The notes below the pieces were generated by a model. That model made no database searches. It was not told the DNA's origin and saw nothing but the letters and a program-made list of their open reading frames with translations. A DNA stretch of 48,151 nucleotides from a virus (lineage: Duplodnaviria; Heunggongvirae; Uroviricota; Caudoviricetes): IMG/VR virus record IMGVR_UViG_2617270976_000012, positions 1 through 48,151 of that record; one strand, 5' to 3'. Positions 8,297 to 12,553 of the stretch are shown here, one piece after another (positions within the stretch are counted from its first letter, which is position 1; each line of letters opens with the position of its first letter). The position numbers were made by a program, and so were the translations under genes.

Positions 8297-9067
8297 ATGG
8301 AAACCGTATCTGACGCACTGAAAGCACTGAAAAAAGCCTCTTCACATGTGGTGGCAGCTCGCCTTGGAATCAGTCGTGAAGAGGCTGTCAACGAGCTGTG
8401 GGAACTCAAAAGAAATGGCGTCGTTGATAAAACTGGTCACACCTGGTTTCTGGCTGGCGAAGGTGAATCCCGGGTAACCGAAGAGCGGCCAGTAAAATCT
8501 GAAGCACAGGATATGCTGACCGGGGAGGTCGAACAAAAAGTTACCGCAGACATGATGATTGAGTTTATCGGTCAGGATGGGGCTAAAACGTGTGAGGAAG
8601 TGGCGGATAAGTTCGGTGTTAGCATTCGCAAGGTTGCTTCCACGTTGGCGGTCGTAACAGCAACGGGGCGCCTGGCACGCGTAAATCAGAACGGTAAATT
8701 TCGTTACTGCATACCGGGCGCTGATTTACCGGCAGAGCCGGAAGCTGCATCGGTAACGGAAACCGATGGTAAAGCCTTTCCTCAGCCAGCAGGTGTTGCG
8801 TTACCAGTCCGGGAAGCGGAAACACAGGAAGAAATTAAAACTGAAAGTGTGGCGGTCACAGTGCAGTCACAGCCGTCGTTCACCAGAAAGCATCCGGATA
8901 GTCTGATTTTACCATCGCTGCATGTGGCTAACCGCGAACTGCGCCGGGCAAAAGGTCAGGTTCAAAAGTGGGAGCGAGTCTGTGCTGCGCTGCGTGAGCT
9001 GAACAAGCACCAGGATATTGTTCGACAGATTGTCGATTCCTCCAGTCGTATTGTGTCGGAAAAGTGA
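8297..9067 (+). CDS. Prophage protein with predicted winged-helix repeats (DUF1627-like)
   Basis: 256-aa ORF, family recognised by recall only. Confidence 0.45.
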   Translation: METVSDALKALKKASSHVVAARLGISREEAVNELWELKRNGVVDKTGHTWFLAGEGESRVTEERPVKSEAQDMLTGEVEQKVTADMMIEFIGQDGAKTCEEVADKFGVSIRKVASTLAVVTATGRLARVNQNGKFRYCIPGADLPAEPEAASVTETDGKAFPQPAGVALPVREAETQEEIKTESVAVTVQSQPSFTRKHPDSLILPSLHVANRELRRAKGQVQKWERVCAALRELNKHQDIVRQIVDSSSRIVSEK

Positions 9068-9082
9068 TTGCCGGAGGTACTT

Positions 9083-9475
9083 ATGGCAAGAGTATTTACA
9101 CAGGAAGAGCGGGAAGAAGTGAAGGCGCGCATTGTGGAATTCGTGCGCCTGAGCGGACGAGAAACTTTTCGACAACTGGCAGATAAAACGGGTGTCAGTA
9201 AGACCGCTATTCGTCGTTTATCTGGTGCGCTTGCGGCCAGTGGTGATGTCTGGCTCTCTGATTGCGGGGTATTTCCATCAGAGCAGGCGTATCGCGTATG
9301 GCGTAAGACACCGGAGAAGGCTGCTGACCCGACACTGATTCGAAAGTTACCTGACGGAGAAATACGTCGTTACAACAGATGGCAGAACATAATTTGTCGT
9401 GAGTGCCGCCAGAGCGAGGTTATGCAGCGTGTGCTGGCGTTCTATCGGGGAAACTTTCAGGAGGTGATGGAGTGA
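9083..9475 (+). CDS. Hypothetical nin-region protein
   Basis: ATG 9083 with GGAGG RBS 5 nt upstream; stop overlaps the next gene start (GTGA). Confidence 0.5.
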   Translation: MARVFTQEEREEVKARIVEFVRLSGRETFRQLADKTGVSKTAIRRLSGALAASGDVWLSDCGVFPSEQAYRVWRKTPEKAADPTLIRKLPDGEIRRYNRWQNIICRECRQSEVMQRVLAFYRGNFQEVME

Positions 9476-9768
9476 GGGTGAGAGTTTATATTGCCGGTCC
9501 AATGACGGGATATGAAAATTTCAACCGTGAGGCGTTTCACAAGGCGGAAGAGGAACTGAAACGGGAAGGGCATACCGTCTTAAACCCGGCAGTACTTCCG
9601 GACGGGCTGACACAGCCGCACTACATGGATATTTGCATGGCAATGATTCGTTGTGTGGATGCGATTTACATGCTGAATGGCTGGCAGCGGTCAGCGGGCG
9701 CTAAGGCAGAGCTGGCACTGGCGGAGAAACTGGGGCATGCGGTGATTTATCAGGAGGTGGCTCAATGA
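9472..9768 (+). CDS. DUF4406 / nucleoside 2-deoxyribosyltransferase-like fold protein
   Basis: GTG start 9472 after GGAGG; N-terminal VYIAGPMTG motif. Confidence 0.5.
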   Translation: MRVRVYIAGPMTGYENFNREAFHKAEEELKREGHTVLNPAVLPDGLTQPHYMDICMAMIRCVDAIYMLNGWQRSAGAKAELALAEKLGHAVIYQEVAQ

Positions 9769-10226
9769 GAGAGGTTAACTATGAGGCGCTTCGTGAGGCA
9801 GCACAAAACTATCAGTCGACGCTGGCGTGGTATCAGGCTATCCCGGACAGCCCAAATGCTGAACGGGATTGTGATGCGGCTCTTGCTGCGTTTAAGCGTC
9901 ACATCCGTCATCGGGAAGCGGATATTATCGCTGATTTGCTGGATGGACTGGAAGAAGCAAAATCACAACTCAACGAGCAGCGTGAGTATTACGAAGGCGT
10001 TATCTCTGATGGGAGCAAGCGTATTGCTGCACTGGAAGCGCGGGAAGTTCAATTACCGACTCGCTACGACCTTCGATATGGACACCCGATAAATGCAGAT
10101 GAGCGACATGTCATGATACCTAAAGAAAATGGCAGTTGGCTTTACCTGATTGACCTAGAACACGCATTACGCGTCGCTGGCATTCGCATCAAAGGAGAGG
10201 AGCATGGAAATAAAACCAGAGGATGA
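9765..10226 (+). CDS. Hypothetical nin-region protein
   Basis: 153 aa; 3' end carries the CATTCGCATCAAAGGAGA junction module (C-terminus IRIKGE). Confidence 0.5.
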   Translation: MREVNYEALREAAQNYQSTLAWYQAIPDSPNAERDCDAALAAFKRHIRHREADIIADLLDGLEEAKSQLNEQREYYEGVISDGSKRIAALEAREVQLPTRYDLRYGHPINADERHVMIPKENGSWLYLIDLEHALRVAGIRIKGEEHGNKTRG

Positions 10227-10560
10227 GTTAAGCAATATCGTTTTATTTCCTGTAAAAGAGGATGACCCGCGTAATCAGGTTAATTTTCTTTATGAGCCAT
10301 CGGAAAGACCATACTGCCATCACGCCTCTGTCCGGGTTGATGAAAAAGAGCGTCAGGTCCGCTGTAAAATCTGCGGCGCAGTTGTGGAGCCATTTGACTG
10401 GATGCTCTCTGTGGCGAAAAGAGAAACCAGACTGGCAGATGATGTAAGGCTATTGCGTCAGGAGGAACGGGAAAGACGGAAAAATATAGAAAAGCTAATT
10501 CAGATTGAGCGTAACGCGAAAGCGCGGATACGCAGGGCGACAAAATCCAGAACTGAATAG
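10204..10560 (+). CDS. Hypothetical protein with putative zinc ribbon
   Basis: 118 aa; C-x-H...C-x2-C cluster (CHHASVRVDEKERQVRCKICG); basic C-terminus. Confidence 0.5.
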   Translation: MEIKPEDELSNIVLFPVKEDDPRNQVNFLYEPSERPYCHHASVRVDEKERQVRCKICGAVVEPFDWMLSVAKRETRLADDVRLLRQEERERRKNIEKLIQIERNAKARIRRATKSRTE

Positions 10561-10655
10561 TTAAATTTAGAACTGTTAAAAATTTAATCCTTAGCCGGAG
10601 GGATTTCTGCACCCTCAGAACATCAGGAGGCCGCCAGAAAGAGCGGTAATGAAAA

Positions 10656-11081
10656 ATGACTGAATTAACAAAAGAGCAATTAATCGAAGAAGCCAAATTA
10701 AAAATAGCGATTGCGAAATGCCATCCCAATTCAGGCGTGGCACGAGTAGAGGGTGAGTTATTCAAAATTGCACTGACATCGCTGGAAGCAGAACCGGTGG
10801 CATGGACTGACGACGAGGAACTGCGAGATATTGAAAAATATGGGTTCGGTGAGATATTTCAGCGTCCGTCAGATAAATATGAGGCTTCGCGTTGTGTTAC
10901 TCCATTGTATCGCATGCCGCCAGTGCCTGTAGTACCTGAAGGACTGGTTAAAGCTGTGCACTTCTATGAACAAGTAAAACGTGAGAATCCGCCAGTTGAG
11001 ACTGGAGCGTGGAAAGACGCTGTTGACTGGGTACTCAAAGAGGTTTGTCAGGTTGTAAACATTCGCATCAAAGGAGAATGA
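10656..11081 (+). CDS. Hypothetical nin-region protein (paralog of the gene at 11595-11939)
   Basis: N-terminus MTELTKEQLIEEAK...ALTSLEAEP parallels [14 protein letters not shown]...ALASLAAEP of the downstream gene; C-terminus IRIKGE. Confidence 0.5.
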   Translation: MTELTKEQLIEEAKLKIAIAKCHPNSGVARVEGELFKIALTSLEAEPVAWTDDEELRDIEKYGFGEIFQRPSDKYEASRCVTPLYRMPPVPVVPEGLVKAVHFYEQVKRENPPVETGAWKDAVDWVLKEVCQVVNIRIKGE

Positions 11082-11082
11082 G

Positions 11083-11598
11083 ATGGCGTTAACACACCGC
11101 GAACTCTGTCAGATTGCGTACAGGTTCCTTAAGCGCAACGGGTTCAAGGTTTGCTTTCATGACCGCTTTGTTGCTGTAACCAGTACTGGAGAACAACCAG
11201 ATGCTATGGGATTCAGAAATTCAGCATCATGCCTGATAGAGGCGAAGTGTTCTCGTGCTGACTTGTTGGCAGATAGAAAAAAGCGTTTCCGTAAAAATCC
11301 CTCTCTTGGCATGGGCGACTGGAGATTCTTTATTAGTGAGCCGGGAATTATTTCAATTGAGGATTTACCACCTGGCTGGGGATTACTTCACGTTGTTAAC
11401 GGAAGAGTACGGAAAGTACATGGGTGGCCCAAGGGTAATTGCTGTTGGGGTGATCCTGACGATAAGCCATTTACTGGAAATAAGCAGGTTGAATGCGATT
11501 ACATGTTGTCTGCATTAAGGCGCATGGAGTTGAGGGGACACCTTAATGAAATATATGACGGTGTAATCGTTAATAAGCAAGAAGGAAGCGCGGCATGA
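11083..11598 (+). CDS. Putative PD-(D/E)XK-type nuclease
   Basis: 171 aa with D...E-x-K-like arrangement (PDAMGF...CLIEAKCS); coupled to neighbours. Confidence 0.4.
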
Positions 11599-11939
11599 CC
11601 ACTTTTACCAGAGAGCAGTTAATAGCTCACGCAGAGGAGACTATTGAAGCACAGAGACTGTGCATACCGGGCACAATCGACCATGACATCATCCGCACAT
11701 ATAAGATGGATATTGCTGTTCTGGAAATCGCACTGGCATCGCTGGCAGCAGAGCCAGCCGGTAAATTGCATGAATACAAACCAGTGGGACATCAGCGTCT
11801 GGTCGACGAGTTAACCATGCTGGTAAAGCAGTTAACCTGGCAACTGAGGAAAACGAAGCCGGACTGTAAATTGCCGGGTAAGGCGATGGACTACCTGAAG
11901 CGAAACGGACTGATAAGCGCAGAGGATGTTTTACGATGA
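11595..11939 (+). CDS. Hypothetical nin-region protein (paralog of the gene at 10656-11081)
   Basis: 114 aa; N-terminal similarity to the upstream paralog. Confidence 0.5.
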
Positions 11940-12230
11940 CCTGGCCTGAGGCATTCACAACGGTAGGGATCGCAATGGCGGTGGCGCTGGTGGTGTATTC
12001 GATTTGTCGCTGGGGATAAAAACGATTTGCGGGGAAAGGATAGTTAAGTAGAATTGCTGCGGGTGCTTGAGGCTATCTGTCTCAGGCATGAATACCAAAA
12101 GGCAGATAGAGAAAAGCCCCAGTTAACATTACGCGTCCTGCAAGACGCTTAACATTAATCTGAGGCTCAATCTATGAACGGCAAATCTAGGTTAGCCTCT
12201 TACGTGCCGAAAGGCAAGGAGAAGCAGGCT

Positions 12231-12386
12231 ATGAAGCAGCAAAAGGCGATGTTAATCGCCCTGATCGTCATCTGTTTAACCGTCATAGTGACGGCACTGG
12301 TAACGAGGAAAGACCTCTGCGAGGTACGAATCCGAACCGGCCAGACGGAGGTCGCTGTCTTCACAGTTTACGAACCTGAGGAGTAA
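12231..12386 (+). CDS. hokD: Hok/Gef-family type I toxin (HokD/RelF-like)
   Basis: MKQQKAMLIALIVICLTVIVTALVTRKDLCEVRIRTGQTEVAVFTVYEPEE matches Hok/RelF as recalled; in-frame upstream extension resembles a mok-type leader; GC hairpin at 12393-12415. Confidence 0.75.
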   Translation: MKQQKAMLIALIVICLTVIVTALVTRKDLCEVRIRTGQTEVAVFTVYEPEE

Positions 12387-12553
12387 GAGACCCGGCGAGG
12401 GAGAAATCCCTCGCCACCTCTGATGTGTCAGGCATCCTCAACGCACCCGCACGTAACCCGCTTCGGCGGGTTTTGTTTTTTCCTGGCATTCTGGTTTACA
12501 ATTCGCACGCCAGCCTGAACAACTGGCACCTGCTGCGCCAGCAGAGACAACCG

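Follow-up and report, generated by a model that had tools for sequence, protein, structure and literature searches.

A chain of small genes located after the replication genes and before Q in an Escherichia coli lambdoid prophage is probably a mosaic of independent accessory genes

The nin region of phage lambda is a dispensable "chain of interlinked genes" (PMC10695390, citing Kroger and Hobom 1982). Here we analyse a comparable chain, seven small open reading frames (ORF1 to ORF7) at positions 9083-11939 of the viral record IMGVR_UViG_2617270976_000012, all 48,151 nucleotides (nt) of which we call the window. The window carries an Escherichia coli lambdoid prophage, and 9083-11939 matches chromosomal prophage DNA of 14 complete E. 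coli genomes at 99.6-100%. We conclude that the interval corresponds to ren/nin and is the delayed-early accessory region of this prophage. It is probably a mosaic of independent accessory genes and not a cooperative system. The cassette is of an already known kind, because every gene can be assigned to a family in Pfam or PHROG and RefSeq annotates the identical DNA.

The chain occupies the slot of ren and nin in lambda, after the replication genes, before Q and on the same strand. All seven ORFs are on the + strand, with genes for an O-like protein (phrog_391) and a DnaC-like loader (phrog_50) upstream and a Q-like antiterminator gene (phrog_127) downstream. The ORF map, RefSeq and the flanks found with PHROG and Rfam agree with an earlier note on this DNA, which had placed the seven ORFs between the replication genes and hok/rusA/Q, in the usual position for accessory functions. 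In the 14 E. coli genomes, the upstream flank holds DicB, a RelE/ParE toxin, repressor and Cro-like genes, YdaT, an O-like initiator, a DnaC-like ATPase and DUF1627, and the downstream flank holds hokD, DUF968 and RusA. Pfam finds both DUF1627 and DUF968 in the window, and RusA is downstream here too. The overlaps between genes are also like those of lambda nin, which measure 4, 11, 23 and 34 nt.

The first gene of the chain strengthens the comparison. ORF1 (9083..9475, 130 amino acids [aa]) is a predicted winged-helix protein of the DUF977 family (PF06163, 141.6 bits against a cut-off of 22.1, E 2.1e-41) and belongs to phrog_142 (E 7.5e-42), a family named 'Ren-like exclusion protein'. It is 28% identical to lambda Ren over 90 residues (E 5e-8), with the C-terminal motif ECRQSxxMxRVLAxY in common, and judged by this alignment it is a homologue of Ren. 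When the chain was compared with Ren and NinB-NinI of lambda, ORF1 was the only ORF with a match (Ren, E 1e-6), and ORF2 to ORF7 gave nothing below E 0.3 against NinB-NinI. NCBIfam gave sub-threshold matches to helix-turn-helix regulators for ORF1 only and nothing for ORF2 to ORF7, and a literature search on DUF977 returned no functional study. The earlier description of the genes as being of unknown function still applies to ORF2 to ORF7, which have neither a NinB-NinI match nor an experimentally known function. The region would work like nin, but it is not a set of nin orthologues. It also differs from lambda in having a DnaC-type loader, DUF1627 before the Ren-like gene, and hokD/sok, DUF968 and RusA in place of NinG-NinI.

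Other parts of the chain resemble the exo-xis (ea) region of lambdoid phages. ORF3 (9765..10226, 153 aa; phrog_250) passes the Pfam threshold for Ead_Ea22 (PF13935, 44.2 bits, cut-off 27). Stx phage ArgO145 and many Stx2a phages carry homologues of ORF4, ORF5, ORF6 and ORF7 in their early-left region, and in ArgO145 the Ea22 gene overlaps the ORF4 homologue by 23 nt, as in the window. In contrast, the modules of the window are in the rightward operon. Ea22 of lambda has a prolysogenic role (PMC7093339, PMC10834534), and the C-terminal domain that has been characterised is not alike in lambda and Stx phages (PMC10834534); the lambda version of this domain has no match in the window.

A third relative is the hea operon (upf88.3-upf89.0-upf89.5) of phage P7. 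Upf89.0 (2524-3039 of the fetched P7 locus, L344) is 95.9% identical to ORF6, and it is preceded by an Ead-like gene to which it is coupled as in the window. However, P7 is a P1-type phage-plasmid in which the hea operon lies behind a C1 operator, and this operon is without DUF4406, Ren-like and zinc-ribbon genes. Similarly, many Stx phages share with P7 a discrete ORF6 module (11060-11616 in the window) that begins at an 18-nt linker, ends a little way into the conserved N-terminus of ORF7 and travels without DUF4406.

The independence of the genes was assessed from their co-occurrence. The earlier note had proposed that the DUF4406 protein (ORF2, 9472..9768, 98 aa, GTG start) and the nuclease (ORF6, 11083..11598, 171 aa) might belong to an undescribed functional system, and had suggested looking at co-occurrence across prophages. 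We used five sets of loci. Three sets of viral loci were anchored on DUF4406 and contained near-identical proteins (n=80), a 58%-identical clade (n=80) and further contigs (n=63), for a total of 223; two sets were anchored on ORF6 and contained 33 species-representative genomes (homologues of 42-91% identity) and 80 viral contigs with near-identical ORF6, for a total of 113. The ORF6 family was present in 7/80, 3/80 and 0/63 of the DUF4406-anchored sets, respectively. Conversely, DUF4406 was within 10 kb of an ORF6 homologue in none of the 33 species-representative genomes (tblastn or hidden Markov model [HMM] search) and was present in 8/80 of the viral contigs. The HMM totals are 10/223 for ORF6 in DUF4406-anchored loci and 8/113 for DUF4406 in ORF6-anchored loci. 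The proposed system fails on these counts, which reveal no conserved co-occurrence in any set. A survey of 5426 complete E. coli genomes gave a similar picture: DUF4406 was found in 1210 (22%) and ORF6 in 931 (17%), pieces of the cassette in 3124, and the whole cassette in 14. Of the 1299 E. coli matches to ORF6, 250 are plasmid-borne.

The neighbours of DUF4406 are variable on one side and relatively constant on the other. In diverse prophages, the gene before DUF4406 encodes DnaB, lambda P, a DnaC-type loader or a small DUF977/winged-helix protein. The genes after it fall into 47 unrelated clusters, 13 of them Ead/Ea22-like. Among 129 distinct contexts, the downstream junction is a 4-nt overlap in 85 of the approximately 116 that were scored. 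Since this overlap is kept across the 47 unrelated downstream clusters, the coupling is a style of operon organization and not the mark of a partnership. More generally, a functional system should not be read from tight stop/start coupling and adjacency in lambdoid early operons, where neighbours swap freely and the coupling stays the same. Farther afield, DUF4406 of Edwardsiella is in an early-left operon next to a 3'-5' exonuclease, and in a Vibrio phage its neighbours are entirely different. In Enterobacter prophages (L197 / L198, 7045-7779, - strand), an Abi_alpha gene on the opposite strand lies two genes past DUF4406, in the equivalent post-replication region.

ORF6 and ORF4 homologues likewise keep varied company. 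In 32 species, the genes up to two positions away from ORF6 homologues include Ead_Ea22 (7), DNA methylases (6) and DUF551 (4), along with NinG, DUF968, Lar (twice), RdgC, NinB and RusA; no deoxyribosyltransferase-like family is among these neighbours. The methylase and Lar neighbours are typical of anti-restriction content. A pairing of nuclease and methyltransferase was also considered and is too rare, with 6 of 109 neighbour proteins (four N6_N4_Mtase and two C5 DNA_methylase). In Stx phage ArgO145, an HNH endonuclease gene precedes the ORF7 homologue with a 4-nt overlap (L345 6046-6752), in the slot that the PD-(D/E)XK nuclease has in the window. Distant ORF4 homologues in Serratia, Yersinia and Salmonella lie just before the antiterminator gene, after RusA, NinG, NinH or a dATP/dGTP pyrophosphohydrolase, and none of them adjoins an Ea22-like gene. 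We considered ORF3 and ORF4 as one true pair, based on the 23-nt overlap in ArgO145 and on annotated fusions, and rejected it because the distant ORF4 homologues follow other genes.

The ends of several genes in the chain are shared, and this may be how the mosaic is assembled. ORF5 (10656..11081, 141 aa; phrog_660, E 2.2e-50; no Pfam match) and ORF7 (11595..11939, 114 aa; phrog_660, E 4.9e-42, covering profile positions 146-193 plus the N-terminus) are 34% identical over only about 56 N-terminal residues. ORF3 and ORF5 are 45% identical over only about 29 C-terminal residues, and ORF3 has no similarity to ORF7. Thus the "two paralog pairs" of the earlier note are real as local similarities, but these are limited to end-modules. 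ORF5 and ORF7 cover different parts of the phrog_660 profile, and neither reaches Pfam Ead_Ea22; ORF7 consists of an ORF5-type N-terminal module joined to a different C-terminal module. At the DNA level, there is a 31-nt repeat of 87% identity (10765-10795 and 11725-11755). The likeness of ORF3 and ORF5 is underlain by an exact 18-nt repeat, CATTCGCATCAAAGGAGA (repeat family D6), at the end of ORF3 (10181..10198) and at the end of ORF5 (11060..11077), which matches twice in comparison to 0.01 matches expected by chance. This linker encodes IRIKGE and at the same time supplies the following gene, ORF4 or ORF6, with its Shine-Dalgarno sequence.

The linker is not peculiar to the window. In the fetched loci, we found it in 95 distinct contexts, before ORF6-like genes (34), ORF4-like genes (33) and other small genes (22). 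The upstream ORFs that bear it are ORF3-like, ORF5-like, ORF1-like or unrelated. Exchange of cassettes at shared junctions is a classical feature of lambdoid mosaicism. We postulate that the shared gene ends serve as junction sequences for cassette exchange, and the 18-nt linker could be a defined recombination joint for cassette swaps. The pieces returned by blastn also break inside the chain: one stops at query position 1522 (window 10604), in the 95-nt AT-rich spacer (10561..10655) that is the sole real gap in the chain, and others start at 9951 in ORF3 and at 10919 in ORF5. The spacer is probably a mosaic joint as well. Several proteins appear to be chimeras of adjacent cassette genes, with the combinations ORF4-ORF6, DUF4406-ORF4, DUF977-ORF4 and Ea22-ORF4 (P0021, P0127, P0280 and P0242); these are either fusions or artefacts of frameshifts or gene calling. 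Fusions and chimeras of this sort would be consistent with frequent recombination inside the chain.

Three other explanations were weighed against a mosaic of independent genes. The most specific is that DUF4406 and the PD-(D/E)XK nuclease form a two-component system, for example one in which a nucleotide signal or a modified base licenses the nuclease. We regard this as highly improbable. In the chain, 1.3 kb and three genes separate the two; they seldom co-occur in the five locus sets, and in other taxa the neighbours of each are without the family of the other. The nuclease gene also moves as a module into P7 and Stx phages and leaves DUF4406 behind, and a PADLOC search with the seven proteins gave no significant match, the best (E 0.014-0.037) all being helix-turn-helix or methyltransferase fragments. 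A broader explanation is that the left half of the chain (DUF1627, DUF977, DUF4406, the Ea22-like gene and the zinc ribbon) is a replication-linked module that tunes nucleotide supply or initiation during induction, with the right half as a shuffled add-on. The genes are indeed linked in the 80 loci with near-identical DUF4406 (DUF977 in 64, DUF1627 in 60, ORF3 in 62 and ORF4 in 56), the position of DUF4406 directly behind DnaB, lambda P, DnaC-type or small winged-helix genes recurs across diverse prophages, and an Ea22-like gene is next in 13 of the 47 downstream clusters. However, the linkage is confined to close relatives. The 58%-identical clade has DUF977 in 2, ORF4 in 7 and ORF3 in 1 of its 80 loci, the surroundings of DUF4406 differ in Edwardsiella and the Vibrio phage, and distant ORF4 homologues are elsewhere in the nin region. 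We therefore consider a left-half module improbable.

The third explanation, which is compatible with a mosaic, is that each gene of the chain is a counter-defence or exclusion factor in its own right, and that the genes are together only because the slot tolerates insertions. The relationship of ORF1 to Ren fits this picture, as do the presence of Lar, orphan methylases, Abi_alpha, NinB, NinG and RusA in the equivalent slot elsewhere, the hokD/sok genes at the end of the chain, and the relationship of the DUF4406 fold to MilB, DNPH1 and TIR domains. Yet none of the seven proteins had a significant PADLOC match, the literature gives DUF4406 and DUF977 no function, and the characterised relatives point elsewhere: Ea22 is prolysogenic (PMC7093339, PMC10834534) and MmcB acts in crosslink repair (PMC9578287). 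As an account of the whole chain, we find this rather unlikely. The particular roles that it would assign, with the Ren-like protein acting against Rex-type exclusion, the nuclease against competing DNA or damage caused by defence, and DUF4406 hydrolysing a nucleotide or immune signal, are similarly doubtful. There is also a small chance that, with no system present, the ORF6 family and DUF4406 are individually hiding new biology.

We favour a mosaic of independent genes over these alternatives, and several points weigh against it. The 80-locus sets are the best 80 matches on only two anchor genes, and close relatives are over-represented in them. The distant locus sets hold duplicates of the same contigs, and our counts are raw counts in which kinship is ignored. 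The left block of the E. coli lineage (DUF1627-DUF977-DUF4406-Ea22-ZnR) is fairly stable (54-64 of 80), and function, beyond ancestry, could account for this. Two Salmonella proteins (P0094 and P0105) appear to fuse an Ead/Ea22 N-terminus to the whole ORF6 nuclease domain, which hints that some neighbours may cooperate. Lastly, every gene function discussed here is deduced from homology, fold and motifs.

The chain would be expressed as follows. We suspect that it is transcribed upon induction, at the far end of the rightward early (replication) operon, and that transcription continues to hokD/sok and then Q. Translation of the genes would be coupled through the stop/start overlaps. The eight or nine small genes would assort independently, and each product would act alone: ORF1 as a Ren-like DNA-binding protein; ORF2 as a small N-glycosidase or transferase whose substrate would be a nucleoside or nucleotide present while DNA is replicated; ORF3, ORF5 and ORF7 as oligomeric Ead/Ea22-type proteins with variable cores; ORF4 as a zinc-ribbon protein with a basic helix; ORF6 as a metal-dependent, MmcB-type DNA endonuclease that plausibly repairs or processes intermediates of replication and recombination; and ORF8, a short ORF after ORF7, as a membrane peptide. 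The gene-end modules would function as joints for homologous recombination, moving cassettes among the nin region, the early-left ea/exo-xis region and phage-plasmids of the P1/P7 type.

ORF2 is a DUF4406 protein, as the earlier note had recognized (PF14359, 128.9 bits against a cut-off of 22, E 1e-37). Its structure model (pLDDT 91.3) indicates a minimal fold of the nucleoside-deoxyribosyltransferase/MilB/DNPH1 type. It differs from the nucleoside 2-deoxyribosyltransferase / MilB / DNPH1 (Rcl) superfamily in being only 98 residues long and in scoring 13.5 bits on PF05014 (nucleoside 2-deoxyribosyltransferase), below the cut-off of 28.8. Residues S74, G76 and E80 (S74-x-G76-x-x-x-E80) are invariant in 27 DUF4406 homologues, and they may correspond to the [DS]xGxxxE motif with the catalytic Glu nucleophile of the superfamily, a correspondence drawn from the motif and not from superposition. 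A profile search of PDB with DUF4406 gave no match, and a literature search found no paper giving it a function, substrate or activity. A link between deoxyribosyltransferases and diaminopurine phages was set aside because it concerns PF05014 and not DUF4406. DUF4406, which has a fixed place at the end of the replication module, might act by hydrolysis, either of a nucleotide or of a molecule that signals in immunity.

ORF6 is related to a known repair nuclease. Caulobacter MmcB, a PD-(D/E)XK endonuclease induced by the SOS response, confers protection from mitomycin C and cisplatin and functions in crosslink repair (PMC9578287). In ORF6, residues D27, E37, D40, E53 and K55 are invariant, and in the structure model (pLDDT 83.5) D40 and the ExK motif are on consecutive strands, as in PD-(D/E)XK nucleases. 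ORF6 has the alpha-beta-beta-beta-alpha-beta core of the superfamily, in which D is on strand 2 and (D/E)xK on strand 3, and the earlier reading of the protein as a PD-(D/E)XK-like nuclease is borne out. The closest fold and a shared ExK-SRxD motif make ORF6 MmcB-like, and the best viral structural matches include phage proteins named MmcB-like; searches of PDB with single cassette proteins gave nothing useful. A profile of the ORF6 family aligns the D...ExK-SRxDxxAD motif of the family with a 35-residue fragment of the MmcB-like protein 3dnx (SPO1766), although weakly (E 0.34), and the sequence identity of ORF6 to 3dnx is 22%. On the MmcB-like Pfam family, PF06319, the fragment scores 39.7 bits, distant relatives of ORF6 score 16.3 and 18.4 bits, under the cut-off of 22, and ORF6 itself has no match at E <= 0.1. 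Because ORF6 and its distant relatives are below the threshold, we class ORF6 by sequence as a sister family of PF06319 and not as a member. The two also differ in context: ORF6 is in a phage early operon, whereas MmcB is encoded by an SOS-regulated chromosomal gene.

The ORF6 family is large, with at least 3223 clusters (50% identity) matching at E <= 0.001, and has no Pfam model. RefSeq annotates the 100%-identical DNA with six of the seven ORFs at the same coordinates as ours. The exception is ORF6, which is given there as a truncated, 'frameshifted' pseudogene of 179 nt (8001-8179 of locus L001, corresponding to 11083-11261 of the window). However, ORF6 is of full length in comparison to 30 homologues from many genera and keeps all of the invariant residues. 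The pseudogene label is probably an annotation artefact. Members of the family, found in prophage early operons and P1-type plasmids, could repair crosslinks or damage inflicted by defence, or could attack competitors.

ORF4 (10204..10560, 118 aa) is the zinc-ribbon protein mentioned in the earlier note. It belongs to phrog_1621 (E 1.8e-56) and has a weak match to Zn_Ribbon_TF. Residues C38, H40, C54 and C57 are invariant in 17 homologues, and a basic C-terminal helix (LRxEExxRRxNIEKLIQIERNAKARIR) is invariant as well.

These assignments bear mainly on annotation. ORF1 can be named Ren-like, ORF4 a C-H-C-C zinc-ribbon protein, and ORF6 an MmcB-related PD-(D/E)XK nuclease in place of 'hypothetical' or 'frameshifted pseudogene', and DUF4406 gains a candidate catalytic Glu and a fixed place behind replication genes. 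What novelty is left is biochemical and concerns DUF4406 and the large MmcB-related family, for which Pfam has no model. Should either serve in phage-host conflict, a sizeable fraction of E. coli strains would be concerned, given the frequencies above.

The chain is longer than the seven genes of the "seven-gene cassette" in the earlier note. The seven ORFs are present, but they are preceded by the gene for the 256-aa DUF1627 protein (8297..9067, + strand; PF07789, E 7.8e-86; phrog_630) and followed by ORF8 (11936..12019, + strand), a hydrophobic peptide of 27 aa read from the sequence. ORF1 starts 15 nt past the end of DUF1627, and the two proteins have a winged-helix segment in common (37% identity over 49 residues); they may be products of an old tandem duplication. 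PHROG 142, the family of ORF1, also weakly matches DUF1627. ORF8 overlaps the stop codon of ORF7 by ATGA and is kept in 30/80 and 31/80 related loci (tblastn); it had no PHROG family match. The downstream boundary of the chain is the sok antisense-RNA region with the hokD toxin gene (12061..12386, + strand). The sok RNA at 12061-12236 (RF01794, 112 bits) is the only Rfam match, and hokD is annotated in identical DNA.

ORF1 and ORF2 overlap by GTGA, ORF2 and ORF3 by ATGA, and ORF3 and ORF4 by 23 nt; the 95-nt gap separates ORF4 from ORF5, a 1-nt spacer separates ORF5 from ORF6, and ORF6 overlaps ORF7 by ATGA. Four of the six internal junctions therefore overlap, in keeping with the earlier description of mostly overlapping stop and start codons. 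Ribosome-binding sites of the GGAGG/AAGGAG type precede every ORF except ORF5, whose site is weak. No promoter-like or terminator-like site within the chain, the 95-nt spacer included, is above shuffled expectation, so that a single read-through transcript is the simplest inference. The first terminator-like hairpin (12455-12472) is past hok. An antisense ORF of 161 aa (10280-10765, - strand) was rejected as a gene, as it has no Pfam match and GC skew favours the + strand. In one pig isolate (H30; NZ_CM149872.1, 1970927-1976295), insertions of an IS3-family element and ISKpn26 cut the cassette into three pieces, as might be expected if the lysogen can do without it.

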